Shown here piece by piece: positions 5,526 through 28,396 of a stretch of 32,000 bases of DNA. Every line of letters starts with the position of its first letter. Within the stretch, counting starts at the first letter, position 1. Origin of the DNA: Methylotenera sp. (lineage in GTDB: Bacteria; Pseudomonadota; Gammaproteobacteria; Burkholderiales; Methylophilaceae); contig NZ_JAUXOY010000014.1 of NCBI RefSeq assembly GCF_030684185.1, positions 1 to 32,000 of the forward strand, given 5' to 3'. Both the position numbers and the translations under genes were made by a program. The notes under the pieces are model-generated. The model saw nothing but the letters and a program-made list of their open reading frames with translations. It did not search any database and was not told the DNA's origin.

Positions 5526-5575
5526 AGTGGTGGATAGTCGCCATTCTATGCAAGTCTTTCAAAATAACCTTGATT

Positions 5576-7648: not shown

Positions 7649-7878
7649 AAAAGCGAATAATTTTTATAGGGAGTGATATTGGCTGGCGATTAAAAACAAG
7701 CTGGAAAATCACATCGGGAGTTTTTCCCGTAGTTACAGTGGTTTTTTCCTATTAAGAAAAAGAAGTGAGCAACTTTATGATGTCTTATCTGCTAAATGAA
7801 GCGGGTAAGTAAGTAGTAGGAATATTTTAGTAAATTTTTTAAAAAAATTTTAGACATCAATAATCAGGAGAAGCAAAC

Positions 7879-8811
7879 ATGAAAAACTTAAGCATGAAAA
7901 AAATTGTGAAAAAAGAACAGGGTTTTACGCTGTTAGAACTATTAGTGGTGATTACACTATTAGCGATTCTTTCAGTAGGCGCATTAGTCGCTTATGAAGG
8001 TGTTGGCGATAACGCACAAGCCACAGCAGCTGCCAACAACACAGCAGGTGCAGACCGTGCGATTCGTAACTATAAAGCCGTGACATTAAACTACCCGGAT
8101 CAATGGGATATGTTATCTACTACAACAGGTGCAACGCCAACTTTCTTGCACACTAAAACACAAGCAGCATTTGGTGTAATGACAGCTCCTGCTGCTGGTG
8201 CATTTAAAACTAAATTTGATGCAGGCTTTGTATCTGTAGGTATTACAGAGTTGCAAACACGTATAATTCCTGGTTTAACACCCAATGTAGACCCTAACTT
8301 GCAACACAATGAAGGTGCACTTGGTCTTTCTGCTGGTACTGACGTAGTTGAAGATGACTTTGGTAATTTTAACTTCTATTCAATCTTGCCAACATTTGGT
8401 GCGGCTGCATGTCAGATTAATGGTGCTGCACCAGCTGTTTTCACTAAGTTAAACGGTGATGCATTTACAGCAGCTGATGGCCAACGTCAAAACGTAATCA
8501 ATGATTACCTTGGTGCAGACGAATGTCATCTAGTCTTGGCTTTAGGTTTCGGTCACGATGCGGCTCATAGCACTAATAACGCTTCAGTGGCTATTGCAAC
8601 TGCACCTACTTTTGTTAGCAAAGACATCAACCCAGCTAAAAACTATGCACGTTACGTTGCATTGTTCCATGTAGGTGGTGACGGTGAAAATGACGGCGTT
8701 GAAGATGGTGATATTACTGTAGATGAATTATTTGCTAAACCACGTTTATTGGCTGTAGTGGACACTGCTGGCAACGTAATTGACGAAAACATCGCTAAAC
8801 AAAATCCATAA
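7879..8811 (+). CDS. Large type IV pilin/pseudopilin-like protein (putative major subunit)
   Basis: SD aggaga 7 nt upstream. Class III signal MKNLSMKKIVKKEQG|FTLLELLVVITLLAIL with Glu at +5. 295-aa mature part with 2 Cys. First gene of the cluster, followed by a hairpin. Confidence 0.85.
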   Translation: MKNLSMKKIVKKEQGFTLLELLVVITLLAILSVGALVAYEGVGDNAQATAAANNTAGADRAIRNYKAVTLNYPDQWDMLSTTTGATPTFLHTKTQAAFGVMTAPAAGAFKTKFDAGFVSVGITELQTRIIPGLTPNVDPNLQHNEGALGLSAGTDVVEDDFGNFNFYSILPTFGAAACQINGAAPAVFTKLNGDAFTAADGQRQNVINDYLGADECHLVLALGFGHDAAHSTNNASVAIATAPTFVSKDINPAKNYARYVALFHVGGDGENDGVEDGDITVDELFAKPRLLAVVDTAGNVIDENIAKQNP

Positions 8812-8853
8812 TTGATTGGTAATTAAATCGATATAGATTGAAAGCGTAATACA

Positions 8854-8884
8854 AGAGACAGTGCTGTTTTGCAGCGCTGTCTCT
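8854..8884 (+). terminator. Hairpin (possible attenuator/terminator) after the first pilin gene
   Basis: agagacagtgctg / cagcgctgtctct 13-bp imperfect stem (one mismatch), followed by only a short tttaat tract, so probably a partial terminator. Confidence 0.5.
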
Positions 8885-9210
8885 TTAATGTGTAAGCCCC
8901 ATAATTAAAGGCAGTATTGTAAAAATGGTGGTTATAAAAAGTAGTGATTAAAAGACAAAGACTAGGTAGTAAAAGTAATCGCTAAAAAGAAGAGGGTACA
9001 AAAACAATAATGTCTGTGATGTTTGAGCTTAAGCCCAATGCCCGCCATGCCGCTAAACAGCGCCGTGGTTTTTTGCGTTTTTTGGGTTTTGCTGTGAATA
9101 ATAAGCTACAGCTTATGTATTCCACGGTAAAAACCCTTGCGATTTTGGCTGCGGATTTACAGCTTAGCCTAAAACTAAAAACAAGACTAAAAACAACAAC
9201 ACGCCAGTCT

Positions 9211-9593
9211 TGCCCTGTGGTTCGACAAGCTCACCAACCGAGCCTGTCGAGTCGTGCCCTGAGCTTGTCGAAGGGAAACCTACCGAAATGACACAGCCCC
9301 TTCGACAAGCTCAGGGAACGGTAGGGAGTGTAGCCTGTAGAGTCGTGCCCTGTGGTTCGACAAGCTCACCAACCGATCCTGTCGAATCGTTCCCTGAGCC
9401 TGTCGAAGGGAAATCTACCAAAACGACACAGCCCCTTCGACAAGCTCAGGGAACGGTAGGGAGTGTAGCCTGTAGAGTCGTGCCCTGTGGTTCGACAAGC
9501 TCACCAACCGAGCCTGTCGAATCGTTCCCTGAGCCTGTCGAAGGGAAATCTACCAAAACGGCACAGCCCCTTCGACAGGCTCAGGGAACGGTA
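9211..9593. repeat. Tandem array, about 2.8 copies of a 135-bp unit built from nested inverted repeats (core ttcgacaRgctc)
   Basis: Units start at 9211, 9346 and 9481 (exact 135-bp period). Each has a 19-bp-arm hairpin ccctgagcYtgtcgaaggg...cccttcgacaRgctcaggg with a 22-nt loop, plus a second 12-bp-arm imperfect hairpin. The same family recurs at 13413-13565. Confidence 0.9.
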
Positions 9594-9649
9594 AGTGTGA
9601 GAGCGTTGATGCATTTTTTATTTAAAAATATTTTTGTAAAGGCTTATTG

Positions 9650-10765
9650 ATGCCGAAAATTCAAACAAACAAAACCAAGCGCCAACATCAACGCCAGCTG
9701 GGCTTTACTTTGCTAGAGCTGTTGGTGGTCATCGGTTTGTTGGGATTAGTAGCGATGTCTATCACTGGCCTGATGATTGAAGACCAAGGCGTAAAACGCC
9801 AAGAAGTGACTGAAAAGCGCTGGGATGAAATTCGCAAGGCGATTATTGGGGATACCTCACGCACCTTAAACGGCGAGCCTATGTTAAGTGGCTATGTGGC
9901 CGATATGGGCAGGTTGCCACGTAATTTAACAGAGCTTATGGTGAAAGATTATGATGATGATAATGACCCATTAACACCTGATTTTGTACAGCCTGCCTGG
10001 GCAGAATTTGCACTCTACGACCCTATTGCTGGTTGTACGCCTAATCCTTGCACACCTTTAACCCTTGGTGCAGGCTGGCGTGGCCCGTATTTATATACGG
10101 GCGGCAGTAAATATTTTAAAGATGGCTGGAGTGCCACAGAAACAGCGGACCTCGATTTTGATTGGGCGGTGACGTTAACAGGCACATCACCTGCACATAG
10201 TGCTATTGCCGTGCAAAGTTTGGGATTTGATAATGCTGTCGGCGGTACAGAATATAAAGCGGATTACCCAGAGGCTGGCATCAATACGGTGTATGCCAGC
10301 GACTGGCAACTAAGCACATTACCTACACCGCCTACCATTCAATTTACAATTCACTTTAATAAAGCACCATTATTTGCGCAAACCGCACTGGAGCTTAGAA
10401 TTTATTATTTCCAAGATGATGCAAACGTTACGACTTCTCCTGCGGATTTTATAAAAAATAATGAACAAGTAAGCAATGTCCTATTTGATTTGCCAACAAC
10501 TACGCCACCAGTGCCAGTTAGCACAAGCATCACATACAGCCCTCCAACTGCCCCTACTCCCCCGCCATATTTGCCTTTGGGTAAATACGCTGCGCTAGTC
10601 TGGTGTACGGATGACCCAGCAACCCCCACCACTGAGCCAGATGTTATTTATGACGGCAACTGCGACTCTGAACAAGACACTGATGTTAAGCCTTATTACT
10701 TTACTATGCTACCCAGTGCTACGCCTACCATTAAAATCTATTGGAACACCCAGGACACCCCTTAA
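9650..10765 (+). CDS. Large GspG-like pseudopilin with a Pro/Thr-rich C-terminal extension
   Basis: SD aaagg 7 nt upstream of the ATG at 9650. Leader MPKIQTNKTKRQHQRQLG|FTLLELLVVIGLLGLVA with Glu at +5. GspG-like segment (RWDEIRKAIIG...LSGYVADMGRLPRNLTEL). PT-rich tract PTTTPPVPVSTSITYSPPTAPTPPPY. Confidence 0.8.
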   Translation: MPKIQTNKTKRQHQRQLGFTLLELLVVIGLLGLVAMSITGLMIEDQGVKRQEVTEKRWDEIRKAIIGDTSRTLNGEPMLSGYVADMGRLPRNLTELMVKDYDDDNDPLTPDFVQPAWAEFALYDPIAGCTPNPCTPLTLGAGWRGPYLYTGGSKYFKDGWSATETADLDFDWAVTLTGTSPAHSAIAVQSLGFDNAVGGTEYKADYPEAGINTVYASDWQLSTLPTPPTIQFTIHFNKAPLFAQTALELRIYYFQDDANVTTSPADFIKNNEQVSNVLFDLPTTTPPVPVSTSITYSPPTAPTPPPYLPLGKYAALVWCTDDPATPTTEPDVIYDGNCDSEQDTDVKPYYFTMLPSATPTIKIYWNTQDTP

Positions 10766-12589
10766 ATGCGTTTAAATGATTTAGTTGAAAAGCTCCCGTT
10801 TTTACAGCGGGTTAATTCTGTTTTAGTGTGCGAGGTTGACCACGCAGGGTTAAGAGCTGCGGTGGTGGTGCGGCATGGTGATGAAGTCACCAGCACATTT
10901 GAGGCTAGCTCTGCCTTGCTGGACTTTAATGCTGCCGTGGCCGAGGTGGTAAAGCACGTGCGTGAGCAGGGCTGGGTGGGCAAGCATGCAATTTTGCTGA
11001 CACCAGCGGTGTTGCTGGCGATGCTGGATTTACCAATTCCGCAAAAAAACAAGCTGGCCCCTGCCGAAGTGGCAGAAAAAATTGATTGGGAGCTAGAGCC
11101 GCTTATTACCCAGCATTTAAGCACCTTGGCTTTGGGCAGGCTGTTGGTGGCACTTGGGTTTATGACGGCTGACCATGTAGACGATGTGATTAGCCAGCAA
11201 AGCTACAGCAATAATACCCATCATGTAGACCCCAATAAAACTTATACCTATAAGCGTTTTGGCGAGGTGGCGATTGAAATGGGCTATATCAATCAGGCGC
11301 AGCTGCAAAAGTGTTTAGATATTCAAAGCTGGTTTCAATCCACAGGTGATGAAGTTAAATGCGGCTGGTCTGCACAGGGTTTGTTGGCTAGCGATGATAC
11401 GGGCAGTGCAAATATGTATCAGTGGCTGGCCAGCGGTGTGAATCAAAGCCTGTTGCGCCAGTGGCAGGCGGCTTTTACGGCGCATCAAATCAAGCTGGAA
11501 TATCTTTATCCGTTGGCTGGATGTGCTGCCAGCATGCCGGATTTAGCTAATAAGGATTTAAAACATCAGTTATTGCTTGAGGTTTATGAAACCGTTATCG
11601 CGGGTGTTCATATTGCGGGCAACCGCATTGTTAGCTTGCATATTCAGCCCAGCACCTTACAAGACACGCTGGCGAATATTGCCGAAACGTATCACTCGCT
11701 TGAAGCCGCTGAATTGGATGCGGTGTGGCTGGTTGATTCTGTATCTAACAATGAAATTGAAGCCAGTAAGTTACACAGCAATTTAGAGGCGGTGGTGTCA
11801 CTGCCGATTAAAACGCTGGCTCGCCAAACGCATTTAGTCAGTGTAGGCATGCTGGGCGCCGCACGCCACATGTTTAAAATGAAAGGCGCACATTATGTGG
11901 CAGGTGTGCCTGTTAGCAACCCGCAGCCTGGCCTGTTGCAGCGTTTGGAAGTGCGTGCCTTTTTGGCAGGCTTGGCTTTGTTGCTTACTATTGGTTTGGC
12001 TGAAGTGGTGCTGCAGGTGCGGCAAAGTCTGATTGAATCTGAAAATGAGCGCGTCAGCAAAGACCTGAAAGTGATAGATGATGCCATTGCAAGGGTGCAA
12101 GCTAAAGTAGATGAAGTTAAAAAGCTTAAAGGTAGCATCAAAGACTTGCAAGCTGAGCAAAAAGAAACACAGGCAGCAGCAAATTTACTTTCTGCGGATT
12201 TACCCAAGCGCAATCAAACCGTTATTTCCTTTCTTAGTGCATTAGATCGGTCGATTTCTGATGATGTGGTGATAGATAGAATTGCTGAAGACCCGATTTA
12301 TGGTTTTACTATCAATGCCTGGTCGTTAAATGATAAATCTGCACAAGAATTTGTAAAAACCCTTCAGGTGGCGGTGCATCCGTTAGGTTATAAATTGAAA
12401 GATGTAACGGTGTCCAGCCAAACTGGCCGATTAGGTTTAATGGGTTCTTCGGTGAGTTTTAGCGCCACATCGCTGGATGATAAAGCTTGGGCTACCGGCA
12501 AATCGTCGCCTAACAAAGCTTTACCCGCTGCTACCGGTAATGCCAGAGTTGCAATCCCTATACCAGCCCCAGCTAAGGAGGTTCAATAA
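10766..12589 (+). CDS. PilM-PilN fusion / GspL- or MshI-like assembly protein (bitopic)
   Basis: The ATG abuts the upstream stop (taaATG). Cytoplasmic N-domain with PilM-like features (…KIDWELEPLI…). Single TM FLAGLALLLTIGLAEVVLQV (about 11955-12020), then a coiled coil and a periplasmic domain. 607 aa. The fold assignment is by eye only. Confidence 0.65.
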   Translation: MRLNDLVEKLPFLQRVNSVLVCEVDHAGLRAAVVVRHGDEVTSTFEASSALLDFNAAVAEVVKHVREQGWVGKHAILLTPAVLLAMLDLPIPQKNKLAPAEVAEKIDWELEPLITQHLSTLALGRLLVALGFMTADHVDDVISQQSYSNNTHHVDPNKTYTYKRFGEVAIEMGYINQAQLQKCLDIQSWFQSTGDEVKCGWSAQGLLASDDTGSANMYQWLASGVNQSLLRQWQAAFTAHQIKLEYLYPLAGCAASMPDLANKDLKHQLLLEVYETVIAGVHIAGNRIVSLHIQPSTLQDTLANIAETYHSLEAAELDAVWLVDSVSNNEIEASKLHSNLEAVVSLPIKTLARQTHLVSVGMLGAARHMFKMKGAHYVAGVPVSNPQPGLLQRLEVRAFLAGLALLLTIGLAEVVLQVRQSLIESENERVSKDLKVIDDAIARVQAKVDEVKKLKGSIKDLQAEQKETQAAANLLSADLPKRNQTVISFLSALDRSISDDVVIDRIAEDPIYGFTINAWSLNDKSAQEFVKTLQVAVHPLGYKLKDVTVSSQTGRLGLMGSSVSFSATSLDDKAWATGKSSPNKALPAATGNARVAIPIPAPAKEVQ

Positions 12590-13332
12590 TGGCTTTCGAT
12601 AAAATCAGCAGTCGCGAGCAGGTACTTATTTTTATTGTGATTACTACATTTGTCGCGGGGGGCTATGGGTTGCTTAGATTTGTGCCGCAGACCAAACAAT
12701 TAGCCGAGTTGCAAGCCACCGTTAAAGTTAATCAAGACAAAATTAAAAATCCGAACTTTCCTGATGAGCCTACGGAGGATACTGAAGATTTAAAAGACAA
12801 GCTGGAAGATTTAGAAAATGTAATGGTGAATGTGCGCGCTAACCTTGAAGCACTGGAAAAAAATCTTGCGCCAACTGATAGCCAGGAAATGGTATTAAAA
12901 ATATCTGAAGCGGCTCGTGCATCCGGGGTGAGAGTGATTGAAAACGTGCCTTATTTGGTGCAAAGAAAAGATGGCGAAACGGCTAATCAAGCCAATAAGC
13001 CAAAAATATCTAAAAGAGGTCAAAGAAAATTAGATAGAGAAGCCAAAAAAAAAGCGCAGCAAGCGGGTGGTGCTGCGGCAGCTTCTGCCAGCGGCGGCAT
13101 TCCTAAAGAAGGCGAGCTGATTTACCGCTTGGTAAACGAGCTGGAAACATCACGGCCTTTTCAGCGTATTAGTGTTGAGGGTAGTTTTGCAGATTTGCAA
13201 AAATTCGTTCAGTCTGTACGTACCATGCCTTGGCAAGCCACCATTGTGAAGCTGGATATTGATGTGGCGATTCAAACCCCGCCACAAGGTATGCCACAGC
13301 CGATTACCGCACGTATGATTATTGCGATTTAG
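12589..13332 (+). CDS. PilO/GspM/MshJ-like bitopic assembly protein
   Basis: TAATG overlap with the upstream gene. N-terminal TM VLIFIVITTFVAGGYGLL followed by a coiled coil (LAELQATVKVNQDKIKN…LEDLENVMVNVRANLEALEKN). The position after the PilM/N-like gene fits this role. Contains a Lys/Ala-rich insert. Confidence 0.6.
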   Translation: MAFDKISSREQVLIFIVITTFVAGGYGLLRFVPQTKQLAELQATVKVNQDKIKNPNFPDEPTEDTEDLKDKLEDLENVMVNVRANLEALEKNLAPTDSQEMVLKISEAARASGVRVIENVPYLVQRKDGETANQANKPKISKRGQRKLDREAKKKAQQAGGAAAASASGGIPKEGELIYRLVNELETSRPFQRISVEGSFADLQKFVQSVRTMPWQATIVKLDIDVAIQTPPQGMPQPITARMIIAI

Positions 13333-13412
13333 CAGGTTAAATTGATGACCTTTAATCTAATAATACAACTATTTCCTCGCCTCAACCTCCTCTTTAGTCT
13401 GGTCAAGACTAG

Positions 13413-13565
13413 CTGTTCCCTGAGCTTGTCGAGCCGTTCCCTGAGCTTGTCGAAGGGCGGCGGAGATTTAGTTACCATTAGTTCCTGTAGCCCTTCGACA
13501 AGCTCAGGGAACGTGGGTCCTTCGACCACTTCGGCAAGCTCAGGACAGGCAGGCTCAGGGAACAG
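13413..13565. repeat. Solo copy of the ttcgacaagctc nested-palindrome repeat family
   Basis: Perfect 22-bp inner arms gttccctgagcttgtcgaaggg (13436-13457) / cccttcgacaagctcagggaac (13491-13512). 13-bp outer arms ctgttccctgagc (13413-13425) / gctcagggaacag (13553-13565). Confidence 0.9.
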
Positions 13566-13607
13566 CGAGCTTTGGTGCAAAAATTTTAGTTCAATAGTCT
13601 TTAAATC

Positions 13608-15251
13608 ATGGCATTAAACACTGAACAACTCATAGAAGCGGGGCTTAAGCAGAGGCTGATTGAGGCGGATGTGCTTAACCAGTTACGCACAGAATCGCGC
13701 CGTAAGCGTATTGATATTCTGGATGCGATTATGGCGCACTACCGCTTGCCTGTCAGTGCGCTATATCGTGCTGTAGCCGAAATGCGCGGTTTAAAATTTG
13801 TAGATTATGCGCAAGCCAAGCCTGATGCTGAATTATTAAAAAAAATTCCGCAGGCATTGGTTAGGCGTAAAGGTTTATTGCCATTGCTGCATGATGAGCC
13901 AGGTGTATTGTTAGCCACAGCAGACCCAGATGACCGCGCCAGCATTGAAACAGTTAGACGTATTTTAGGCAGTCAGTTGCGCGTGGCCGTGGCAGAGCCT
14001 AATACGCTTAATGCGGCAATCAATCGCGCGTACCTCAGTCAAGCTGCCGCACCTAGTGGCTTGCCAACAGCGGCAGCTGAGGTGGATTTAGTAAGCTTGC
14101 TTGATAGTATTTTTAAAGAGGCTTATTTGCGTAGGTCTTCTGATATTCATTTGGTGCAGGATGAGTTTGGTTTACGCGTACGTTTACGTGTAGATGGCGA
14201 GTTGCAAGATTATGTAACTGATAGTGTGCATGATACAACCGTGGCTAACGGGCTTATTTCACGCATTAAAGTATTGGCTAATTTAGATATTGCCGAGCAG
14301 CGCGAACCGCAAGATGGCGGCATGTCTTATTACTTGCCACCGCCGATTGATAGCGAGTTTAACGTGCGCGTGGCCACCGCGCCAACGCGGCTGGGTGAGC
14401 GTGTGACTATGCGCGTGCTGGGGCAGGATGCGCAGGATTTAACCTTAGAAAAAATCGGCATGTCTGAGCCGGATATGCTGATGTTCAACAAAGCCATCAG
14501 AAAACCATTCGGTATGATTTTGCTCACAGGCCCTACGGGTAGCGGTAAATCCACCACGCTATTTGCGGCATTACGCGAAATTAGCTCGCCCAGCATTAAC
14601 ATTATGACGGTAGAAAACCCGGTGGAATATGTGATGGAAGGGGTTTCTCAAATTCAAACAGGGGCAAAAGTTACCTTTGCCAGTGCGTTGCGGTCTTTAT
14701 TGCGGCACGACCCCGATGTGCTGATGGTGGGTGAAATCCGCGATGAAGAAACCGCCGATACCGCGCTCAAAGCGGCGATGACGGGTCATTTGGTATTTTC
14801 TACCCTGCACACCAATACGGCGGCAGGTACGGTATCGCGTTTAATCGACATTGGCTGTGAACCGTTTTTAATTGGTTCTACCATGAATGCGGTGATTGCA
14901 CAGCGTTTGGTGCGCAAGTTATGTTCGCATTGTAAAACCAGCCATGCTGCAACCGATGAAGAAAAAAATCTATTAGACTTACCAGCAGAAACGGAAGCTC
15001 AAATTTATGAGCCAAAAGGTTGTGCTTTTTGCCAAGGTTCAGGCTATCGCGGGCGTTTGGGCTTGTTTGAAACATTATGGTTTGATGAAGAGCTTAGTAA
15101 ACTGGTGGCCAAAGGCTGTAGTGAAGAAGAGCTGGAGCAGCGTGCAGGCCCACAGCGATTACGCCCGATGTGGGTAGATGGCACTGCAAAAGTATTGGCT
15201 GGTATTACCACCATTGCTGAACTGCAAAGCGTTGCAGTGAAAAGGCATTAA
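13608..15251 (+). CDS. GspE/PilB/MshE-family secretion/assembly ATPase
   Basis: T2SSE_N-like N-domain (…GLKFVDY…LLKKIPQALVRRKGLLPLL…LLATADPDD). Walker A GPTGSGKST, Walker B/Asp box DVLMVGEIRDEETA, His box GHLVFSTLHTN, tetra-Cys CSHCK…CAFCQGSGYRGR. Confidence 0.92.
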   Translation: MALNTEQLIEAGLKQRLIEADVLNQLRTESRRKRIDILDAIMAHYRLPVSALYRAVAEMRGLKFVDYAQAKPDAELLKKIPQALVRRKGLLPLLHDEPGVLLATADPDDRASIETVRRILGSQLRVAVAEPNTLNAAINRAYLSQAAAPSGLPTAAAEVDLVSLLDSIFKEAYLRRSSDIHLVQDEFGLRVRLRVDGELQDYVTDSVHDTTVANGLISRIKVLANLDIAEQREPQDGGMSYYLPPPIDSEFNVRVATAPTRLGERVTMRVLGQDAQDLTLEKIGMSEPDMLMFNKAIRKPFGMILLTGPTGSGKSTTLFAALREISSPSINIMTVENPVEYVMEGVSQIQTGAKVTFASALRSLLRHDPDVLMVGEIRDEETADTALKAAMTGHLVFSTLHTNTAAGTVSRLIDIGCEPFLIGSTMNAVIAQRLVRKLCSHCKTSHAATDEEKNLLDLPAETEAQIYEPKGCAFCQGSGYRGRLGLFETLWFDEELSKLVAKGCSEEELEQRAGPQRLRPMWVDGTAKVLAGITTIAELQSVAVKRH

Positions 15252-15253
15252 CG

Positions 15254-16480
15254 ATGGCAAAATTCAAATACACCGCTATCAATAGTGCAGGTAAAGAAAG
15301 AAAAGGCAGCATTCAGGCCTTGGATACCAATATGGCGTCAGCAGCCTTAAAAGAGCAAGGGCTGTATGTGATTAAAATTGGCGCAGAAACCAGCAAGGCA
15401 GAGGGTGGATTGTCGAAAGAGTTTAATTTTTCAAGTCTGAATAAGTACCGTTCAGTTTCTAAAACGCAATTGGTTTTTTTCTTTAAGCAGCTTTCGTTTA
15501 TGTTGCGTGCAGGTTTGCCTGTGATGCAAGCTTTACAGCTCTCTCAGACTCAGGTTTCAAGCGGGCGCTTACGCTTGGTCATTGGTGAAATGCTGAGCGA
15601 TATTGAAAATGGCAGCCAGGTATCAAAAGCTATGGAGAAGCATAGTGAGGTATTTCCAGCCATCGCCATTAACTTAATGGCGGCAGGTGAAAGTACAGGT
15701 TCGCTGGACTTGGTGGCAAACCGCCTGGCGGATCACCTTGAGAAAAAAGCCGCGCTTAAATCACAAACCATCAATGCCATGATTTATCCATCAGTGGTAG
15801 TGGTTGCCGCGATAGGCGTAGTGATTTTTTTAGTGGTTAAAATTATTCCGACATTCGCTAAGTTTATTCAGGGCAAAGGCAAAAAATTACCGGCTTCTAC
15901 CCAGTTTTTAATCGACGCTTCAGACTTTGCACTCAAATACGGACTATTTTTTGTAGCGGCTTTTATTTTGAGCGTGGTTGTTTTAATCACGGCCTACAAC
16001 ACGCCATTGGGGCGTTTGAAAATTGATGGTTTTTTATTGAAAATCCCCGTAATAGGCAAACTGCTTTCGCATGGGGCCATGGCAGAGTTTAACTGGTCGC
16101 TCTCTATGATGTTGCGTAGCGGTTTAACTGCGTATGAGTCGCTCAAAATATGCGGCAAGGTTATTGCCAATCGCCTTATCTCTACCAAGTTGTATCTAGC
16201 TGCCGACCAAATTTTAACAGGGCGCGATTTGGCTTCCAGCTTAAAGCATCCTGCTATTCCGGAATTAGTGATACAGATGACTGCTGTGGGTGAAAAAACC
16301 GGAACGCTGGACTTAGTGTTGCAAGAAGTTGGCGTGTTTTATGAAATGCAGTTGCAGGTAGGTGTAAAGCGCATGAGCGCAATGATAGAGCCTGCCATGA
16401 TATTGGTGATAGGCGGAATTGTTGGTTTTGTGTATTACGCGTTTTTTCAGGCCATGTTTTCTTTGGTGTCGAAAGGTTAA
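15254..16480 (+). CDS. GspF/PilC-family inner-membrane platform protein
   Basis: Two repeats of the T2SSF-type domain (…FFKQLSFMLRAGLPVMQAL… and …FNWSLSMMLRSGLTAYESL…), 3 TM segments, 408 aa. Starts 2 nt after the ATPase stop. Confidence 0.9.
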   Translation: MAKFKYTAINSAGKERKGSIQALDTNMASAALKEQGLYVIKIGAETSKAEGGLSKEFNFSSLNKYRSVSKTQLVFFFKQLSFMLRAGLPVMQALQLSQTQVSSGRLRLVIGEMLSDIENGSQVSKAMEKHSEVFPAIAINLMAAGESTGSLDLVANRLADHLEKKAALKSQTINAMIYPSVVVVAAIGVVIFLVVKIIPTFAKFIQGKGKKLPASTQFLIDASDFALKYGLFFVAAFILSVVVLITAYNTPLGRLKIDGFLLKIPVIGKLLSHGAMAEFNWSLSMMLRSGLTAYESLKICGKVIANRLISTKLYLAADQILTGRDLASSLKHPAIPELVIQMTAVGEKTGTLDLVLQEVGVFYEMQLQVGVKRMSAMIEPAMILVIGGIVGFVYYAFFQAMFSLVSKG

Positions 16481-16485
16481 AGATT

Positions 16486-16962
16486 TTGAAAATTACTAGT
16501 TTTTATCAAACTGTATTGGGTGTGATTAGTAGTGCTGGTTTGCTGTTTTTTATATCCACCAGCGTCATGGCGGCCGATGCCTTTTCAGGCTATTACGGCG
16601 GTAACGGCCAAAATCAGCAGAACGGCAGAATACAGCGTGACCCCTTTACCACCAGCGACAAAATGTATGGCGAAGTAGGTGCGCAAGCCGCACAAAGGGC
16701 AAGTAACGCACAAGGCTTTATTCCGGGTTATGGGGCGCAGGCAGTGCCAAAAATGCGACTAAAAGGCTTTGTGACTAAAAGCAATAAAAAAGCGGCGGCT
16801 CTGCTGGATGTTGAAGGTGTTGGCGTGTATTTGGTGAGTGAAGGCGATGAAATAGGCTTGCAGGCCATGGGGCAGAATAGTGTTTTAAAAATCATCGGGG
16901 TCAGTGCCAATGGCGTAAAAGTGCAATCTGGTCAGGTGAATCAAGTGATAGTTGTACGTTAA
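16486..16962 (+). CDS. PilP/GspC(HR)/MshK-like small periplasmic protein
   Basis: TTG start. Signal/anchor VLGVISSAGLLFFISTSVMAADA. C-terminal beta-rich segment MRLKGFVTKSNKKAAALLDVEGVGVYLVSEGDEIG…LKIIGVSANGVKV, typical of secretin-docking PilP/HR domains. Located immediately upstream of the secretin gene. Confidence 0.6.
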   Translation: MKITSFYQTVLGVISSAGLLFFISTSVMAADAFSGYYGGNGQNQQNGRIQRDPFTTSDKMYGEVGAQAAQRASNAQGFIPGYGAQAVPKMRLKGFVTKSNKKAAALLDVEGVGVYLVSEGDEIGLQAMGQNSVLKIIGVSANGVKVQSGQVNQVIVVR

Positions 16963-16970
16963 GTAATTAG

Positions 16971-19052
16971 GTGATTATTTTGGTGGGTATGTTAGCAATG
17001 AATAAACCTTTAGATAAGATTTTGGATAAAACAAGAATGAATAAAATGATGGTAACTAAGAAATCACGCCTATCCGCGCGATGGTGTCTGCAATTGGCGG
17101 TTCTAGGTGTTGCACTAACTGCTTTGTTACCAATTCAAGCTTATAGTGACAATGGTGTTTTGATTACCCCAGTAGAACCTGTGCTAGGTGTTGCACCAGA
17201 TGAAAGCGTGATAGTCGCTACACCGGCAACTCAAAACCTGAACACTGAAAAAGCCAATCAAACACGTAATAAAAAAATAGCCGCCAAAGCTACTCCACCT
17301 AAAAATGCGGCACTTAAAAAATCGTCGACCACCGCTGAAAATGCAATTATCAGCAAGCTGGAGTTTAAGCAGGCCAATATGGTAGATGTGGCGCGCGCGC
17401 TGGCAGATATGTCAGGTTTAAACATAGTAGCGACTGAAGAAGCAGCAAAAAAAACCGTGACGGTGTTTTTGCAAAACATAACAGTTAAAGATGCGCTGGA
17501 TACTATTAGCAAGAATAGCGGGCTTTGGTACAGGCAGGATAAAATCAGCAAAACTTATCGCATTATGAGTACCGATGAATATCAGCGCGATATGGTGGTA
17601 TATCGTGACGATGTTACCAGAGTGTTCGATATATTGCACCCTAACCCCATCATTATTGCCAATGCAATCAAAGATTTATATGGCAAAAGAGTGAGGCTGT
17701 CCATCGGGGTTGAAGACAACACAACTATGGGCAATTTTGGAGCTGCGGGTGCAGCATCAGCGACGACTAGAAATATTGGGGGTAATAACTCAAGCCTGAA
17801 TAGCTCGCGCCAGAATAATAATCGCCAAGCGGGTGGGAGTGCAGACGGAAACAATGAAGATGGCAGTAATCGGGTTGTGATTACAGAAAAACTATCAGTT
17901 GAAAAGATTTCCAGGTTGGAGGAGCAATTAAAAGCACAAAATGACGATAAAACTATTTCGGCAGAAATGCTTAGAGATTTATCTACGCAAGAGCAACCAA
18001 TTTTTGTGACGCTAAATCGTGAACACAGTTTTGTGATTGTACGCACTAGCGATACGCTTGCTATTAGCGATATAGATCAATTGATTAAACAAATGGATAG
18101 ACCCACGCAGCAAGTGCTGCTGGAGATGAAAATATTGTCATTAGAAGTAGGAGATGCCTATCGTCAAGCGTTTGATATTGATTACATTCCCAACAGTACT
18201 GCGGTACAAGGGCCATTGACAGATCAAGATAGAAATCCACTACATAGTACTAAGCCAGATAGCATTTCTGAAACCACTCCTTATACCACTTCCGGAGGTG
18301 GTACTGGGACTTTGACTCGTAGTGGGGATATTGCAGTAGGCGGGGTTAGGAACATATTGGGGCTAGGTAACTTTGCGTTGGAAGGGGGTACTTTTGTATA
18401 TCAGTTTATGAATGACAAAATTCGGGCGCGTATTCAACTATTACAAACAAACAATAAAATCAACACATTAAGCTCCCCCATTTTACTGGCGACTAATAAT
18501 AAACCTGCCCGCGTATTCGTCGGCTCAGAGCAGGTAATTACCACGGGGTTTGATGCGGTGGCGGGCGGAGCTAACTCCGTTTCTGTTGGTGCACCTGCGG
18601 TTATTCCTGTGACTGAAATAAGAAACGTCGGTAATACCCTGCAAATCATGCCAAAAATTAATGCAAATGGAACCGTAACTTTGATGATTCAGCAAGACTC
18701 ATCCTCAATACTGCCTGGTTCAAGTTCTATTCCTGTCGTAGTTGGTTCAACTGTACAAAGATTCAATGTAGATACAGTAAAAACTTCAAACATACAAGGC
18801 ACAGTTGTGGCAAAAGATGGCTTAACGGTTGCCATTGGCGGTTTGATTGACAGCTCGGAAAGTGAAGAGGAGCAAAAAGTCCCAATCTTAGGTGATATAC
18901 CTTTAGTCGGTGAGTTATTTAAACGTAAAGCGAAAACAAAAGGAAAACGCGAGCTTTTGTTATTGATTACTCCGCACATTATTGCAAATTCCCTAGAAGC
19001 TGAAAATGTAACGAGAGATGCTATCGAGCCAATTTCAGACCAGGAATGGTAA
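16971..19052 (+). CDS. Secretin (GspD/PilQ/MshL family)
   Basis: PilQ/MshL-style N0 region (ISKLEFKQANMVDVARALADMSGLNIVATEE…VTVFLQNITVKDALDTI). C-terminal secretin signature VPILGDIPLVGELFKRKAKTKGKRELLLLITPHII. Start is uncertain: GTG 16971, ATG 16998 or 17037-17049, and the signal peptide h-region is CLQLAVLGVALTALLPIQA. Confidence 0.9.
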   Translation: MIILVGMLAMNKPLDKILDKTRMNKMMVTKKSRLSARWCLQLAVLGVALTALLPIQAYSDNGVLITPVEPVLGVAPDESVIVATPATQNLNTEKANQTRNKKIAAKATPPKNAALKKSSTTAENAIISKLEFKQANMVDVARALADMSGLNIVATEEAAKKTVTVFLQNITVKDALDTISKNSGLWYRQDKISKTYRIMSTDEYQRDMVVYRDDVTRVFDILHPNPIIIANAIKDLYGKRVRLSIGVEDNTTMGNFGAAGAASATTRNIGGNNSSLNSSRQNNNRQAGGSADGNNEDGSNRVVITEKLSVEKISRLEEQLKAQNDDKTISAEMLRDLSTQEQPIFVTLNREHSFVIVRTSDTLAISDIDQLIKQMDRPTQQVLLEMKILSLEVGDAYRQAFDIDYIPNSTAVQGPLTDQDRNPLHSTKPDSISETTPYTTSGGGTGTLTRSGDIAVGGVRNILGLGNFALEGGTFVYQFMNDKIRARIQLLQTNNKINTLSSPILLATNNKPARVFVGSEQVITTGFDAVAGGANSVSVGAPAVIPVTEIRNVGNTLQIMPKINANGTVTLMIQQDSSSILPGSSSIPVVVGSTVQRFNVDTVKTSNIQGTVVAKDGLTVAIGGLIDSSESEEEQKVPILGDIPLVGELFKRKAKTKGKRELLLLITPHIIANSLEAENVTRDAIEPISDQEW

Positions 19053-19088
19053 GAGAAAATTAGAATATAAAGTTGAAGGAATGTTGAG

Positions 19089-19772
19089 ATGAATTTATTG
19101 AAAACGAAATTACCGAGCTTAGGCGTATTGATTTTAGCGCTATCTTTAACAGGCTGTGCAACCTCTATACCCCAAGCCGAAAACTTTTCTGCAACCAAGC
19201 AGAAAAAGGTAATGGCTGCCCAGCACTGGGGGGTGATTGCTGCTGATGCTGTTGAGCAAACAAGATTGGCATTAGTAAAACAGACATTTGTTAAAGATAA
19301 GCCTTTATATGTCACTGATAACGAAAGCACAGAGTTTAGCCGTGCTTTTCGTAAATATATGATTGCAGGCTTGCTTGATGCAGGGTTTGTGGTTTCAGCT
19401 AAAAAGGAAGGCGCGGTTGAGGTTGGCTTCGAGGCACAGGTAATTCGTCATGCTTCGTCATTCGACCCGCAGGCTTATGGCTATAAGCCTGGCATGGCCA
19501 CGGCTGGCGTAGCAGGTTTTTGGGTACTACGTGATGCACTGCGTTACGGCGCATCGGCAGGCACGGTTTTGGCAACCGTTGCTGCAGCGGGCGGTACTGA
19601 TTACTATAATGCCAAAAATCCAGGTGAAACCGGTGTGGAATTATTAATTAGCACGTCAATTATTCATGCTGACCGCTACGTGATGCTAAACGCCGATGCC
19701 TATTACATTGAAAAAGGCGAGGCGTGGCTGTTTGAAGGATGTAAAGGTAAAAACCGGCGCCAATGTCGTTAG
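19089..19772 (+). CDS. Lipoprotein of unknown function (possible secretin-associated/pilotin-like)
   Basis: SD aagga 8 nt upstream. Lipobox LSLTG|C. Gly/Ala-rich hydrophobic segment GMATAGVAGFWVL…GASAGTVLATVAAAGG. 227 aa. The functional link rests on position only. Confidence 0.7.
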   Translation: MNLLKTKLPSLGVLILALSLTGCATSIPQAENFSATKQKKVMAAQHWGVIAADAVEQTRLALVKQTFVKDKPLYVTDNESTEFSRAFRKYMIAGLLDAGFVVSAKKEGAVEVGFEAQVIRHASSFDPQAYGYKPGMATAGVAGFWVLRDALRYGASAGTVLATVAAAGGTDYYNAKNPGETGVELLISTSIIHADRYVMLNADAYYIEKGEAWLFEGCKGKNRRQCR

Positions 19773-19948
19773 TAATATCAAATTTTCTACAAATCCAAAA
19801 CTAACAGAATAGATATTTAGGTTTTATGAAAAATAGCCCCCAGTTTCCTTCTTAAAGCAAACCTTTCAAACTAAAGCTTTAGCGGATTTTGCCGATAACT
19901 TAAGTACTAAAGTCGTTATCGAAGCAAAAACACTAAAGGATCATCATT

Positions 19949-20137
19949 ATGTTTAAACAAAGAGGAATTACCAGCCTTGAGCTTCTATGCTCATTAACAA
20001 TTATTTCATCTGTAACTGCATATACAGTAAACATGGCCGATGAAGTAGAGATTGCCATTGCAAATTATCAACAAACTACGGATTTGCAGCAGATTAAAGC
20101 TAGAATCCAAACGGCTAAATACGCAGATGATAAATAA
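19949..20137 (+). CDS. 62-aa mini prepilin-like protein
   Basis: SD aagga 8 nt upstream. MFKQRG|ITSLELLCSLTIISSVTAYTV has Gly at -1, Glu at +5 and a hydrophobic helix. The remainder is a predicted amphipathic helix, with no globular domain. Confidence 0.45.
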   Translation: MFKQRGITSLELLCSLTIISSVTAYTVNMADEVEIAIANYQQTTDLQQIKARIQTAKYADDK

Positions 20138-28394: not shown

Positions 28395-28396
28395 TG

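Follow-up and report, generated by a model that had tools for sequence, protein, structure and literature searches.

The ten co-oriented genes between positions 7879 and 20137 of the present Methylotenera window (the whole 32-kb stretch of DNA analysed here) raise the question of which type IV filament machine they encode, and whether its product is a fibre on the cell surface or a periplasmic piston for secretion.

A conserved lineage of the type IV filament superfamily

An ORF check recovered all ten genes intact on the + strand (Table 1), about 11 kb in total, with junctions of 0 nt, a 1-nt overlap (TAATG), and then 2, 5 and 8 nt; coordinates and junction lengths bear out the tight coupling described in the original prediction. 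Two long gaps (8812-9646 and 13333-13607) are taken up by REP-like palindromic repeats, and REP arrays sit in three intergenic gaps, confined to the DNA between genes. The same gene order, with all ORFs intact, is shared by approximately 35 fetched loci from Methylophilaceae, Methylophaga, Methylomonas/Methylobacter, Nitrospina, Nitrospirota, Alphaproteobacteria and a Planctomycetota-related branch. Given this conservation in other organisms, the locus is real, far beyond chance, and the synteny proposed for checking across Methylophilaceae holds there and in several phyla beyond. We conclude that the locus is no oddity but belongs to a conserved lineage within the type IV filament superfamily, without a name as yet and with T4aP, MSHA and T2SS as relatives, which supports the distinct sub-type suggested originally; a literature search found no paper describing it.

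Table 1. Positions, strand and diagnostic traits of the features in the window
Feature	Position	Strand	Traits
LanP (lanpepsy) orthologue, secreted	786..1325	+	two Pfam PepSY domains
Sensor histidine kinase	5570..6886	+	LapD/MoxY-type periplasmic domain, HAMP, HisKA_3, HATPase (Pfam)
NarL/LuxR-family response regulator, kinase partner	6861..7493	+	Response_reg and GerE
Palindrome CGGGAGTTTTTCCCG, candidate operator	7715..7729	.	164 nt upstream of first pilin gene
310-aa prepilin	7879..8811	+	N_methyl; 15-aa leader, F+1, E+5
Stem-loop, terminator or attenuator	8849..8893	+	after first pilin gene
371-aa prepilin (372 aa from 9647)	9650..10765	+	N_methyl; 18-aa leader, F+1, E+5; GspG-like core
Signature protein, 607 aa	10766..12589	+	PilM-like actin fold, TM helix, coiled coil, PilN-like domain
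MshEN-like insert	11129..11326	+	residues 122-187, inside PilM-like domain
PilO/GspM-like bitopic protein, 247 aa	12589..13332	+	Pfam PilO E 0.0019 (weak)
Extension ATPase, GspE/PilB class, 547 aa	13608..15251	+	T2SSE E 2e-116, MshEN E 2e-17
Platform protein, GspF/PilC-type, inner membrane, 408 aa	15254..16480	+	two T2SSF domains
Small exported protein, PilP/GspC position, 158 aa	16486..16962	+	faint PilP, E 0.064
Outer-membrane secretin, 693 aa	16971..19052	+	Secretin E 4e-38, weak STN
Lipoprotein, 227 aa	19089..19772	+	lipobox LTGC
62-aa mini-prepilin	19949..20137	+	leader MFKQRG, I+1, E+5; no globular head

The genes encode a complete envelope-spanning machine with all assembly parts present: a GspE/PilB-class ATPase, a PilC/GspF platform, a PilM~PilN fusion, a PilO-like protein, a secretin, three proteins with class III signal peptides and, encoded where PilP would be expected, a small protein. 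HMMs and structure prediction agree with the roles first assigned gene by gene, the PilP match being weak. The ATPase, which is about as distant from PilB structures as from those of GspE, scores 471 bits against GspE (cut-off 630) and 464 against PilB (cut-off 676), the platform protein 312 against GspF (424) and 280 against PilC (700), and the secretin 172 against GspD (351), 128 against PilQ (284) and 117 against MshL (250). All three score slightly better against T2SS than against T4aP models, with GspE, GspF and GspD as top equivalogs, and none of them reaches its NCBIfam equivalog cut-offs (GspE/F/D, PilB/PilQ, MshL). The true start of the secretin is probably a downstream Met directly before the signal peptide. 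The PilO/GspM-like assignment is borne out by the weak Pfam hit and a family profile match to PDB PilO structures (5uvr/2rjz, E 0.004); the protein has an N-terminal TM segment at residues 11-32, and its gene is translationally coupled to that of the 607-aa protein. The 158-aa protein carries an N-terminal signal or anchor (residues 9-30) and occupies a slot between platform and secretin that is conserved in all proteobacterial loci; this position suggests the PilP/GspC role first assigned, the PilP hit being faint and no PDB sequence matching. No family or PDB match was obtained for the lipoprotein, orthologues of which (52-83% identical) lie directly 3' of the secretin in nine Methylophilaceae-type loci, with a Sel1-repeat protein in its place in Methylomonas and Methylobacter; its position makes it a candidate, Methylophilaceae-specific pilotin.

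Among ORFs of at least 100 aa in the window, no Peptidase_A24, PilT, GspH-K, MshM/N or Wzy_C was found, consistent with the previously noted absence of a prepilin peptidase, PilT, GspHIJK and MshM/MshN. Neither MshM/N nor GspH-K occurs in the approximately 35 loci inspected. MshM is a mandatory MSH component, and MSH loci provide a precedent for a prepilin peptidase outside the locus (Denise et al. 2019). The missed cut-offs and the absence of MshM and GspH-K support the view that the locus corresponds to none of the textbook systems.

Most relatives add a Wzy_C pilin-glycosylase-like gene (PglL/TfpO-like), a third GspG-like pilin and other small genes. The gene with Wzy_C and Wzy_C_2 adjoins the orthologue of the 310-aa pilin in at least 18 relatives, the third, middle pilin carries Pfam T2SSG, and in eight non-methylotroph relatives the locus itself includes a bona fide PilT (TIGR01420, 403-416 bits, cut-off 319), which is absent from every methylotroph locus examined. 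In comparison, Wzy_C, the middle pilin, a retropepsin-like gene and PilT are missing from the present window; the middle pilin is likewise not encoded in L001, L004 and L007, which keep all other genes. The term "compact" thus fits the present strain and not the lineage, and with the additional Wzy_C gene, third GspG-like pilin and non-methylotroph PilT the lineage looks at least as T4aP-like as "T2SS/MSHA-like". Because the window lacks these three genes, arguments on glycosylation and retraction rest on the relatives.

The PilM~PilN signature protein and the three prepilins

The lineage is defined by a PilM~PilN fusion with a tandem MshEN-like motif. The 607-aa protein was modelled (AF2, pLDDT 79) with a cytoplasmic PilM-like actin fold, a TM helix at approximately residues 394-419 (a hydrophobic segment that was also detected separately), a long coiled coil and a periplasmic PilN-like domain, in line with the predicted PilM-PilN/GspL/MshI-like fusion. 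It belongs to no Pfam family, and no PilM, PilN or GspL Pfam model matched; Foldseek retrieved P. aeruginosa PilM (5eou, E 5e-11), Thermus PilM, FtsA and the cytoplasmic domain of GspL (4pht_X, E 9e-7), and a profile comparison with the PDB retrieved PilN (3jc8, E 0.004). The family comprises at least 265 clusters at 50% identity (E <= 1e-30).

The insert within the PilM-like domain contains the tandem 24-residue MshEN-like motifs ALGRLLVALGFMTADHVDDVISQQ and RFGEVAIEMGYINQAQLQKCLDIQ. It matches NCBIfam NF053729 "c-di-GMP_motif, MshE-related" at E 1.6e-8 and 34.2 bits, below the cut-off of 38, and the MshE N-domain 5htl by profile (E 0.0076), and the AF2 model places helix-turn-helix pairs at exactly the motif residues. 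Motif 2, which is conserved in distant family members including Planctomycetota-level relatives, starts with Arg and has Phe at position 2. Compared with the published consensus (PMC11731258), motif 1 starts with A/S/T/V and not with R/K/L, and the spacer between the motifs is 18 residues long instead of 5. The insert is regarded as c-di-GMP-receptor-like and, on account of these two deviations, as no more than a candidate binder. The 24-residue motif was not found in the GSPII/MshEN-fold N-domain of the ATPase, nor in that of 11 orthologues.

The leaders of the two large prepilins, MKNLSMKKIVKKEQG (15 aa) and MPKIQTNKTKRQHQRQLG (18 aa), each followed by FTLLE, agree with the long basic leaders and the F+1 and E+5 residues reported earlier. 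The 310-aa pilin has 643 homologues, and the proposed AlphaFold and Foldseek analysis gave a confident head model (pLDDT 84, pTM 0.80), the alpha1 helix being the sole match in the PDB (59 columns, E 0.34) and the head having no neighbour there. Its gene is preceded by an AT-rich region of its own and followed by a strong hairpin (8812-8900: MFE -31 kcal/mol, z = -7 against 200 shuffles), which a simple terminator scan did not list because of its weak U-tail. This protein is the probable major subunit, with a head of about 240 aa. The 371-aa prepilin ends in a Pro/Thr-rich C-terminal extension, and its matches to PDB sequences are limited to alpha1; hhalign against the T2SSG-bearing middle-pilin family (probability 99.6%, E 2e-23, 157 columns) spans the GWRGPY, DGWxx and SLGxD motifs, and this profile-profile comparison substantiates the GspG-like core originally proposed. 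In the mini-pilin, the leader precedes ITSLE, and a weak ComGE-type match (E 0.0025) covers the N-terminal helix only; orthologues of 58-64 aa (62-64% identical) with conserved G-1 and E+5 occupy the same position in L001, L004, L007 and L012.

Neighbouring genes and rival explanations

In methanol- and methane-using bacteria, the locus is found repeatedly beside lanthanide-response genes, an observation of gene neighbourhood only that is not universal. The LanP orthologue of the window matches PDB 9vy3, "Propeptide, PepSY amd peptidase M4" (E 3.4e-52, residues 33-179), which is the annotation of Mfla_0908, i.e. LanP, a protein with a Sec signal peptide whose deletion left growth unimpaired at 20 uM soluble La (PMC9988556). 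LanP lies within 10 kb of at least nine loci in three methylotroph lineages, PepSY homologues being located less than 10 kb from L001, L004, L009, L010, L012, L021, L022 and L036, and in Methylobacter it stands beside TonB-ExbBD. It is a recurrent neighbour and not a core part. A XoxF/MxaF-family PQQ dehydrogenase is encoded between LanP and the kinase. Kinases of the same architecture adjoin the locus upstream in Methylophilaceae, while those of Methylophaga start 7 nt past the secretin stop in several loci and at approximately 1.1-1.3 kb in others. Regulators with 42-79% identity are adjacent in L001, L004, L009 and nine Methylophaga loci, and a LuxR-type regulator is located near L036; the pair is missing from the fetched flanks of L007, L010, L013 and L014 (Methylophilaceae) and of all non-methylotroph loci. 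The kinase is a candidate regulator of the locus, and the kinase/regulator pair and LanP, which recur in three methylotroph lineages, probably belong to its biology; a literature search found no published link of LanP or MoxY-type genes to a pilus or secretion system. The motif CGGGA-N5-TCC precedes the orthologous pilin by 164-247 nt in the window, L001, L004, L009 and L014, and by 393-478 nt in four Methylophaga loci, against a background of 0.07 per kb over 609 kb. As the pattern was chosen after viewing the sequences, it is suggestive of a candidate operator.

How well does this neighbourhood fit a secretion system? If the machine were an exporter akin to type II secretion, a short pseudopilus of GspG-like pilins would act in the periplasm and drive folded cargo from there out through the secretin; for methylotrophs, Sec-exported LanP is a conceivable cargo, so that the locus would act as a lanthanide-scavenging device under MoxY-type two-component control. 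The E, F and D proteins are slightly closer to T2SS and two pilin families have a GspG-like core; both facts count against a pilus and fit a secretion system. The GspL-like architecture of the fusion, the lack of PilT in all methylotroph loci, and the vicinity and signal peptide of LanP and the unimpaired growth of its deletion mutant on soluble La, with TonB-ExbBD as a further neighbour in Methylobacter, point in the same direction. However, every T2SS equivalog cut-off is missed, GspH-K and a GspC-type HR/PDZ protein are absent, and the pilin that is best conserved and seemingly most strongly expressed has a mass of 31 kDa and a head that is not of the GspG type. Moreover, pilus traits accompany the system, namely the pilin-glycosylase-like gene and, in other phyla, PilT. 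Neither LanP nor the kinase is encoded near the locus in non-methylotroph relatives, and LanP itself is described as periplasmic. We consider the exporter unlikely.

It is very improbable that the locus is a decaying remnant which lost Wzy_C, the middle pilin, the retropepsin-like gene and PilT and was invaded by REP-like elements. The absence of these genes relative to the relatives and the REP arrays would be in accordance with decay, but ten ORFs over about 11 kb are intact, translational coupling is kept, the repeats spare the genes, a 98% identical protein was found in another Methylotenera MAG, and three relatives without the middle pilin retain everything else. Still less credence is given to a DNA-uptake (competence) pilus, with which the PilT-bearing, T4aP-like relatives and the weak ComGE-type match of the mini-pilin would be compatible: ComEA, ComEC and DprA genes are absent from the window and the inspected flanks, the methylotroph loci lack PilT, and the ComGE match is confined to one helix. 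Least probable of all, and largely refuted here, is a divergent canonical MSHA or T2SS with its missing parts encoded elsewhere in the genome, as the peptidase-free MSH loci, the fused MshI, the MshEN-fold domain of the ATPase and the weak best PDB matches of the pilin N-termini to MshA are outweighed by the low equivalog scores, the lack of MshM/N and GspH-K in all loci, a constant gene order unlike either system, an ATPase without the MshE-defining c-di-GMP motif and a 607-aa protein outside the PilM, PilN and GspL Pfam models.

Proposed mechanism and comparison with known systems

On balance, and with some reserve, we favour a surface pilus machine regulated by c-di-GMP and a two-component system. 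A fibre is preferred over a periplasmic piston because the 310-aa pilin has a large, confidently modelled head, hundreds of homologues and a strong hairpin behind its gene, and because relatives have the pilin-adjacent Wzy_C gene and PilT. A prepilin peptidase encoded elsewhere would cleave the long basic leaders, and the ATPase would dock on the cytoplasmic PilM-like domain and drive the platform to polymerise mainly the 31-kDa pilin, the gene of which would be served by a promoter region of its own, with the 371-aa GspG-like pilin and the mini-pilin as minor or priming subunits. The filament would leave through the secretin, the insertion of which is probably aided by the adjacent lipoprotein. 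We hypothesize that the PilM-like scaffold senses c-di-GMP through its four-helix insert, in place of the ATPase, and licenses assembly as MshE does for MSHA, while the adjacent MoxY-type kinase and LuxR-type regulator may adjust transcription to a signal in the periplasm. The machine most likely builds a surface pilus that serves attachment or biofilm formation; methylotroph versions of this pilus may either not retract or rely on a PilT encoded at another genomic site.

With the MSHA of Vibrio cholerae (mshIJKLMNEGF / mshBACD), whose MshI combines PilM- and PilN-like parts in one protein, the locus shares an MshI-resembling fusion with PilO-like and PilP-position proteins and a secretin encoded after it, an extension ATPase with MshEN-fold N-domain, an MshEN-type c-di-GMP motif somewhere in the machine, pilin N-termini closest to MshA among PDB sequences, and the absence of a prepilin peptidase and a retraction ATPase. 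In contrast to MSHA, it lacks MshN and MshM, the latter mandatory in the TXSScan MSH model, has another gene order, misses the MshL cut-off, carries the c-di-GMP motif in the PilM-like scaffold instead of the ATPase, and encodes pilins two to three times larger with leaders of 15 to approximately 40 aa.

The T2SS (GspC-O) is resembled in the best-scoring models of ATPase, platform and secretin, a single GspL-like scaffold polypeptide with actin-like cytoplasmic domain (Foldseek GspL match), the GspG-like core found in the 371-aa pilin as well as in the middle pilin of relatives, and the methylotroph loci without PilT. Unlike a T2SS, the locus reaches none of its equivalog cut-offs, has no GspH/I/J/K, GspC with HR/PDZ or GspO, and has a 31-kDa pilin with non-GspG head as its apparent major subunit, while a Wzy_C-type gene and PilT accompany it in relatives. 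T4aP (PilMNOPQ and PilBCT) offer counterparts for PilM, PilN, PilO, the PilP-position protein, the secretin, the PilB-class ATPase and PilC, as well as F+1 and E+5 in the pilins and, in relatives, the pilin-adjacent PglL/TfpO-like gene and, in non-methylotrophs, bona fide in-locus PilT. They differ in that here PilM and PilN are fused and bear the MshEN-like insert, the ATPase and the secretin stay below the PilB and PilQ cut-offs, AMIN domains and the FimU/PilVWX/PilY1 set are lacking, the leaders are long and basic compared with 5-7 residues, and the whole locus forms one operon-like cluster.

The methylotroph lanthanome is tied to the pilus locus by gene neighbourhood only, and not universally, but the PepSY protein of the window is a close homologue of LanP of Methylobacillus flagellatus, the kinase has the LapD/MoxY periplasmic domain of MxaY/MoxY kinases, and the PQQ dehydrogenase lies between them. 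Compared with the MshEN/GSPII receptors (V. cholerae MshE, T. thermophilus PilF GSPII-B), the insert is located inside a PilM-like actin fold and not at an ATPase N-terminus, has no C-terminal alpha/beta subdomain, and deviates in spacer length, in the start of motif 1 and in the Phe of motif 2. Nevertheless, this candidate binder shares with them two copies of the 24-residue motif, the predicted helix-turn-helix, Gly at position 3, the hydrophobic pairs, the terminal Gln and, in motif 2, the initial Arg.

Layout of the locus and its relatives

The ten co-oriented genes of the original prediction were recovered at the same coordinates in a mechanical ORF list, with junctions of 0 nt, a 1-nt overlap, and 2, 5 and 8 nt. 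Two long gaps interrupt the locus (8812-9646 and 13333-13607), both filled with REP-like palindromic repeats. Those between the two large-pilin genes form a tandem array of three 135-bp units, the 23-nt palindrome of which recurs, in copies of 100% identity, in the gap that separates the PilO-like gene from the ATPase gene; the ORFs 9210-9650 and 13342-13617 are spurious because these repeats create them. Scans with sigma-70 and terminator consensus sequences remained at background level, and Rfam and tRNA scans gave no match inside the locus. The first pilin gene is followed by a very stable hairpin (-31 kcal/mol, z = -7), as would be typical where a major pilin gene is highly expressed and read-through continues into the assembly genes. 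Further downstream, a pair of membrane-protein genes, DUF3999 (459 aa) and DUF2339 (943 aa), was noted at 27015-31228 on the minus strand beside an MFS transporter.

The roles proposed from the sequence were recovered in Pfam and NCBIfam scans as N_methyl for both large pilins, T2SSE (E 2e-116) plus MshEN for the 547-aa ATPase, two T2SSF domains for the platform, a Secretin domain in the 693-aa protein and a weak PilO match for the 247-aa PilO/GspM-like protein. The PilP/GspC-like role of the 158-aa protein stands in part, with a faint PilP match in favor and nothing in the PDB profile search, which likewise returned no match to the lipoprotein. The Pfam scan assigned no family to the 607-aa protein, the lipoprotein or the mini-pilin. 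As anticipated, no prepilin peptidase, PilT, MshM, MshN or minor pseudopilin was found among the scanned window ORFs of at least 100 aa, and the domain scan of these ORFs gave neither Peptidase_A24 nor Wzy_C.

Homologous loci in other organisms (handles L001 to L036) comprise 29 from a scan of one genome per GTDB species plus seven from contig look-ups. The synteny that had been proposed for testing in Methylophilaceae is indeed conserved there and extends beyond that family. The core order, which is constant among the loci, is large pilin, GspG-domain pilin (where present), GspG-like large pilin, PilM-PilN fusion, PilO-like protein, PilT (where present), ATPase, platform, PilP-position protein and secretin. 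Carriers within Methylophilaceae are Methylotenera, including the isolate M. mobilis 13, Methylophilus and others. A dozen loci belong to Methylophaga, including M. thiooxydans DMS010, and Methylococcales also carry the locus, with Methylomonas and Methylobacter isolates reached through a search with the 310-aa pilin. Pseudomaricurvus, Chromatiaceae, Emcibacter, another alphaproteobacterium, Nitrospina/Nitrospinaceae and Nitrospirota are further carriers. Cultured carriers are M. mobilis 13, M. thiooxydans DMS010, Methylomonas sp. LW13 and Methylobacter sp. YRD-M1.

These relatives show that the version of the locus in the window is a reduced one. In at least 18 methylotroph loci, the large pilin gene is adjoined by a gene for a 590-630-aa protein with Wzy_C and Wzy_C_2 domains, the pair typical of PglL/TfpO-type pilin O-glycosylases, suggesting that the pilin is O-glycosylated in these loci. 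In many relatives there is a third pilin (the middle pilin), which measures 200-290 aa and carries the Pfam domain T2SSG, and four Methylophilaceae loci have, after the secretin/lipoprotein genes, a gene for a protein with a C-terminal retropepsin-like aspartic protease domain. Just ahead of the large pilin gene, 16 loci outside Methylophilaceae encode a conserved small protein without Pfam family (consensus HDGFGxIRVEVKILKRxQKEVILHCGKQYRFVVD), which is absent from the window and the Methylophilaceae loci. Eight loci, covering all non-methylotroph relatives, have a second ATPase gene between the PilO-like gene and the main ATPase gene; the two products tested, from L025 and L033, belong to the PilT family (TIGR01420, 403-416 bits vs a cut-off of 319), and PilT is absent from the window and all methylotroph loci. 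L033 additionally encodes two more pilins downstream, together with a third ATPase, which is PilB-like.

The window contains none of these additional genes, and a search of its sequence for remains of the middle-pilin, Wzy_C and retropepsin-like genes detected none. The only similarity is a stretch of 27 aa in translation at 9004-9084 (E 4e-4), which resembles sequence, either non-coding or leader, ahead of the middle-pilin gene in the related locus L006 and may represent a conserved intergenic or leader element that has outlived the loss of this gene. The place occupied by the Wzy_C gene in most relatives is taken by a MITE-like nested inverted repeat (7489-7652), which begins directly after the stop codon of the response regulator and has outer 23-nt arms (7489-7511 and 7630-7652) and inner G/C-rich 40-nt arms (7523-7562 and 7582-7621).

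Coordinates of features in the window, in the 607-aa protein and in homologous loci of other organisms (L handles)
Feature	Sequence	Position	Remark
REP-like palindromic repeats (CGTTCCCTGAGCYTGTCGAAGGG / CCCTTCGACAAGCTCAGGGAACG)	window	9206-9610; 13401-13574	
Methanol/ethanol-family PQQ dehydrogenase, XoxF/MxaF-like	window	3446-5431	TIGR03075, 616 bits vs cut-off 480
Divergent GntR-aminotransferase regulator	window	1708-3198	(-)
Candidate regulator site near pilin gene	window		CGGGAGTTTTTCCCG
Actin-like fold	607-aa protein	residues 18-390	AlphaFold2
Helical insert	607-aa protein	about residues 99-190	AlphaFold2
TM helix, then ~100-residue helix, then ferredoxin-like C-terminal domain	607-aa protein		AlphaFold2
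24-residue MshEN-like motifs	607-aa protein	residues 122-145; 164-187	each on predicted helix-turn-helix
ExbB-ExbB-ExbD-TonB and LanP-like PepSY gene	L036	1426-5687	Methylobacter sp. YRD-M1, CP091424.1
Wzy_C + Wzy_C_2 gene	L001; L010; L023; L035; others	5848-7641; 4941-6710; 4660-6420; 11347-13131	
Retropepsin-like protein, ~336 aa	L001; L004; L009; L014	18044-19054; 18421-19443; 18615-19628; 18423-19430	PF13650/PF13975
Small protein, 60-98 aa	L036; L035; L033	9596-9841; 9479-9718; 5921-6217	also Methylophaga, Nitrospina, L030, L032
Second ATPase	L025; L033	12342-13439; 12766-13833	also L003, L024, L028, L030, L031, L034

Large pilins and the PilM-PilN scaffold

The family of the 310-aa pilin comprises 643 homologues with a nearly invariant N-terminal stretch of 75 residues; two cysteines are conserved, as are the motifs YPNQWD, PNxxHNEG and ALGFGxDAA. 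Its structure was predicted with confidence (pLDDT 84, pTM 0.80), and the head of about 240 aa is without a solved structural relative, since only the alpha1 helix has a neighbour in the PDB. An acidic loop, GGDGENDGVEDGDITVDEL, resembled the calcium site of GspG and EF-hands; this candidate was dropped, as the loop is not conserved in the orthologues. No GspG-like core was found in the 310-aa pilin, of which only the helix aligns. For the 371-aa pilin, the sequence match to known pilins is confined to alpha1, but profile-profile comparison with the T2SSG-bearing middle pilins gave a probability of 99.6% over 157 columns, taking in the GWRGPY, DGWxx and SLGxD motifs, and thus justifies the label 'GspG-like' that it had received.

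The long leaders of 15 and 18 aa were read directly from the sequence of the two large pilins, and both have Phe at position +1. The 310-aa orthologues of Methylophaga (L015-L019, L022, L023, L027) start with a conserved extension of ~40 residues with the consensus MNIxQMKxxIxKFRxADxSxIKDxxxRAKxQKLQxKxKG|FTLLE, which implies a predicted prepilin leader of exceptional length, about 40 residues. Long basic leaders are therefore a trait of the family. Orthologues of the 62-aa mini-prepilin with 62-64% identity occur in four other Methylophilaceae loci, where G-1 and E+5 are kept.

A word-indexed homology search with the 607-aa protein yielded only 47 clusters, all annotated 'hypothetical' and devoid of Pfam domains, from MAGs of Methylotenera, Methylophilaceae and Methylococcales. 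By exhaustive profile search, the family grew to 265 representative clusters at E <= 1e-30 and 432 at E <= 1e-10, most members being full length (550-700 aa) and some clusters originating from Gemmataceae and Planctomycetota MAGs. The AlphaFold2 model (pLDDT 79) has four regions, and its best Foldseek matches are, in descending order, PilM of P. aeruginosa and Thermus, FtsA and the cytoplasmic domain of GspL. With the family profile, PilN (E 0.004) and the MshE N-domain (5htl, E 0.0076) were matched among PDB sequences. The proposal of a PilM-PilN/GspL-like fusion thus agrees with both the structural and the profile matches.

Two stretches of the 607-aa protein match the NCBIfam model NF053729 'c-di-GMP motif, MshE-related' (E 1.6e-8), with 34.2 bits falling below the cut-off of 38. 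The published MshEN consensus consists of two copies of (R/K/L)LGxx(L/V/I)(L/V/I)xxG(L/V/I)(L/V/I)xxxxLxxxLxxQ in a four-helix bundle with a 5-residue spacer (PMC11731258). Motif 2 of the scaffold (RFGEVAIEMGYINQAQLQKCLDIQ) agrees with this consensus except for Phe at position 2 and is kept in distant relatives, motif 1 is without the leading R/K/L, and the spacer has 18 residues instead of 5. Conversely, neither a strict nor a loose c-di-GMP motif was found in the MshEN-fold N-domain of the locus ATPase or of 11 orthologues, whereas a control MshE sequence gave two matches in the same search. The presence of the motifs in the scaffold and their lack in the ATPases suggest that, in this lineage, the scaffold may have taken over c-di-GMP sensing from the motor. 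A literature search found no paper on c-di-GMP sensing placed in a PilM-like scaffold. Should the MshEN-like module in the PilM-like domain bind c-di-GMP, the second messenger would control filament assembly by a new route, via the scaffold and not the motor.

Lanthanide-related genes next to the locus

The product of 786-1325 is a close homologue of PDB entry 9vy3 (E 3.4e-52), which we infer to be the lanthanide-binding protein LanP (lanpepsy) from the shared Mfla_0908 annotation string. It is a secreted, Mfla_0908-like protein with two PepSY domains and a mature pI of 4.65, in keeping with the definition of LanP as an acidic protein of ~19 kDa. The gene lies just after a tRNA-Pro/Arg/His cluster (4-352). 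A LanP homologue was found within 10 kb of the locus in at least nine loci of Methylophilaceae, Methylophaga and Methylobacter. In the Methylobacter locus L036, the ExbB-ExbB-ExbD-TonB and LanP-like genes are situated directly upstream of the secretin gene, and a LuxR-type response regulator precedes them.

Directly upstream of the locus, the window encodes a LuxR-type regulator and a histidine kinase whose periplasmic domain is of the LapD/MoxY type, and the locus has a pair of the same architecture beside it in L001, L004 and L009. In Methylophaga, the pair is found on the opposite side, where it starts 7 nt behind the secretin gene in several loci and at a distance of ~1.1-1.3 kb in others. 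Between LanP and the kinase, the window contains the PQQ dehydrogenase and the GntR-aminotransferase regulator; this pair sits downstream of the pilus locus in L012, so the neighbourhood has been rearranged. The association with LanP and the kinase is absent from the flanks of L007, L013, L014 and all non-methylotroph loci. Aligned upstream regions of the pilin genes were too divergent for a promoter call, and only CGGGA-N5-TCC emerged; the motif CGGGA-N5-TCC(CG), defined after inspection of the sequences, recurs upstream of the pilin gene at ~15 times background.

MoxY/MxaY-type kinases govern methanol dehydrogenase expression and the lanthanide switch (PMC5018670), and the papers on LanP and MxaY make no mention of pilus or secretion genes. 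As recurrent neighbours of the locus, LanP and the MoxY-type sensor provide a testable lead to how lanthanide-dependent methylotrophs sense or reach the metal. One joint reading, which we regard as rather improbable, is that the pilus machine of methylotrophs belongs to the lanthanide-response apparatus. Lanthanide or methanol status would then be sensed by the MoxY-type kinase, perhaps with the help of periplasmic LanP, which in turn would switch the system on, and the output would be export of LanP or another metal-scavenging protein through the outer membrane or, alternatively, an acidic, glycosylated pilus touching poorly soluble lanthanide sources, while c-di-GMP would gate assembly via a receptor module that has left the ATPase for the PilM-like scaffold.

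Surface pilus, exporter and the named systems

The locus encodes a GspE/PilB-class ATPase, a PilC/GspF platform and pilins with class III signal peptides, as do members of the type IV filament superfamily. Its class was assessed by NCBIfam equivalog cut-offs, gene content and the TXSScan definitions of Denise et al. 2019. The ATPase is about equidistant from PilB and GspE structures, and the platform protein scores below the equivalog cut-offs of both GspF and PilC. The methanol-induced 'unique Type II secretion/pilus' island of M. mobilis JLW8 (mmol_1380-1409; PMC3728764) was considered as the same locus and rejected as an unrelated Tad system, because its gene list contains TadE, CpaB, Flp pilin and an A24 peptidase.

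Long leaders and large pilins are shared with T4bP, whereas Phe at +1 in both large pilins, the lack of a peptidase in the locus and the ATPase scores (~330 bits to PilB/GspE vs 117 bits to BfpD) set it apart. From T4aP it differs in the scores for PilB (464 bits vs a cut-off of 676) and PilQ (128 vs 284), in the fusion of PilM and PilN, which are separate genes in T4aP, in leaders of 15 and 18 aa (about 40 aa in Methylophaga) vs about 5-7 aa, and in having no PilT retraction ATPase in the window. With MSH, all loci of which were reported to be without a prepilin peptidase (Denise et al. 2019), it shares the lack of this gene. However, mshA, E, G, L and M are the mandatory MSH genes in the TXSScan model of the same study, and neither an MshM-type AAA ATPase nor an MshN TPR protein occurs in the window or the ~35 related loci; the MshL score is 117 bits vs a cut-off of 250, and the N-domain of the ATPase is without the tandem c-di-GMP motif that MshE carries.

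The T2SS scores are slightly better and favor the main rival reading, a T2SS-like exporter with LanP as an attractive but unproven cargo, although they also remain below the cut-offs (GspE 471 bits vs 630, GspF 312 vs 424, GspD 172 vs 351). The GspG model TIGR01710 reaches just 22-27 bits vs 89, on the N-terminal helix alone, and no GspH-K match extends past this helix. The GspG-like core of the 371-aa pilin, seen only by profile-profile comparison, and the GspG-like middle pilin of relatives would also fit an exporter, but the probable major pilin is large and non-GspG, which speaks for a pilus. Similarly, methylotroph loci are devoid of PilT, as expected of an exporter, but PilT is present in other relatives, and so is, in many methylotroph loci, a glycosylase-like gene beside the pilin gene; both favor a pilus. 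The GspL-type scaffold (Foldseek matches to GspL 4pht_X and PulL 5tkw, with PilM scoring better) and its PilO/GspM-like partner resemble T2SS components; as a scaffold of this type is common to MSH and T4aP, it does not discriminate T2SS. The atypical T2SS of Geobacter (OxpG) was considered as a possible relative, for which the literature search provided no usable information.

Judged from sequence and predicted structure, the best-supported reading is that the locus encodes a dedicated surface-pilus machine of a new lineage. Transcription of its genes would be under the MoxY-type two-component system, and c-di-GMP would exert post-translational control via the scaffold. Domain scans, synteny and missed cut-offs support the original prediction of a distinct type IV filament machine. 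It is made more specific by a signature fusion that contains an MshEN-like insert, by the range of phyla, by the accessory genes, by a pilin head lacking a structural neighbour and by the lanthanome genes nearby.

Methylophaga, Methylotenera, Methylomonas and Nitrospina do not occur in the available part of the supplementary files of Denise et al. 2019. According to surveys of type IV filaments, few new families are left to find (Denise et al. 2019). Contrary to this expectation, the lineage described here combines a gene order that is fixed across several phyla, a scaffold without Pfam family in hundreds of clusters, pilin heads without a structural neighbour in the PDB and leaders of up to ~40 residues. 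As had been claimed, the locus is unlike the textbook T2SS, T4aP and MSH loci: since equivalog cut-offs are missed and mandatory genes are absent, it is, on these cut-offs and its gene content, a member of the T4aP/MSH/T2SS branch that stands outside every named system.
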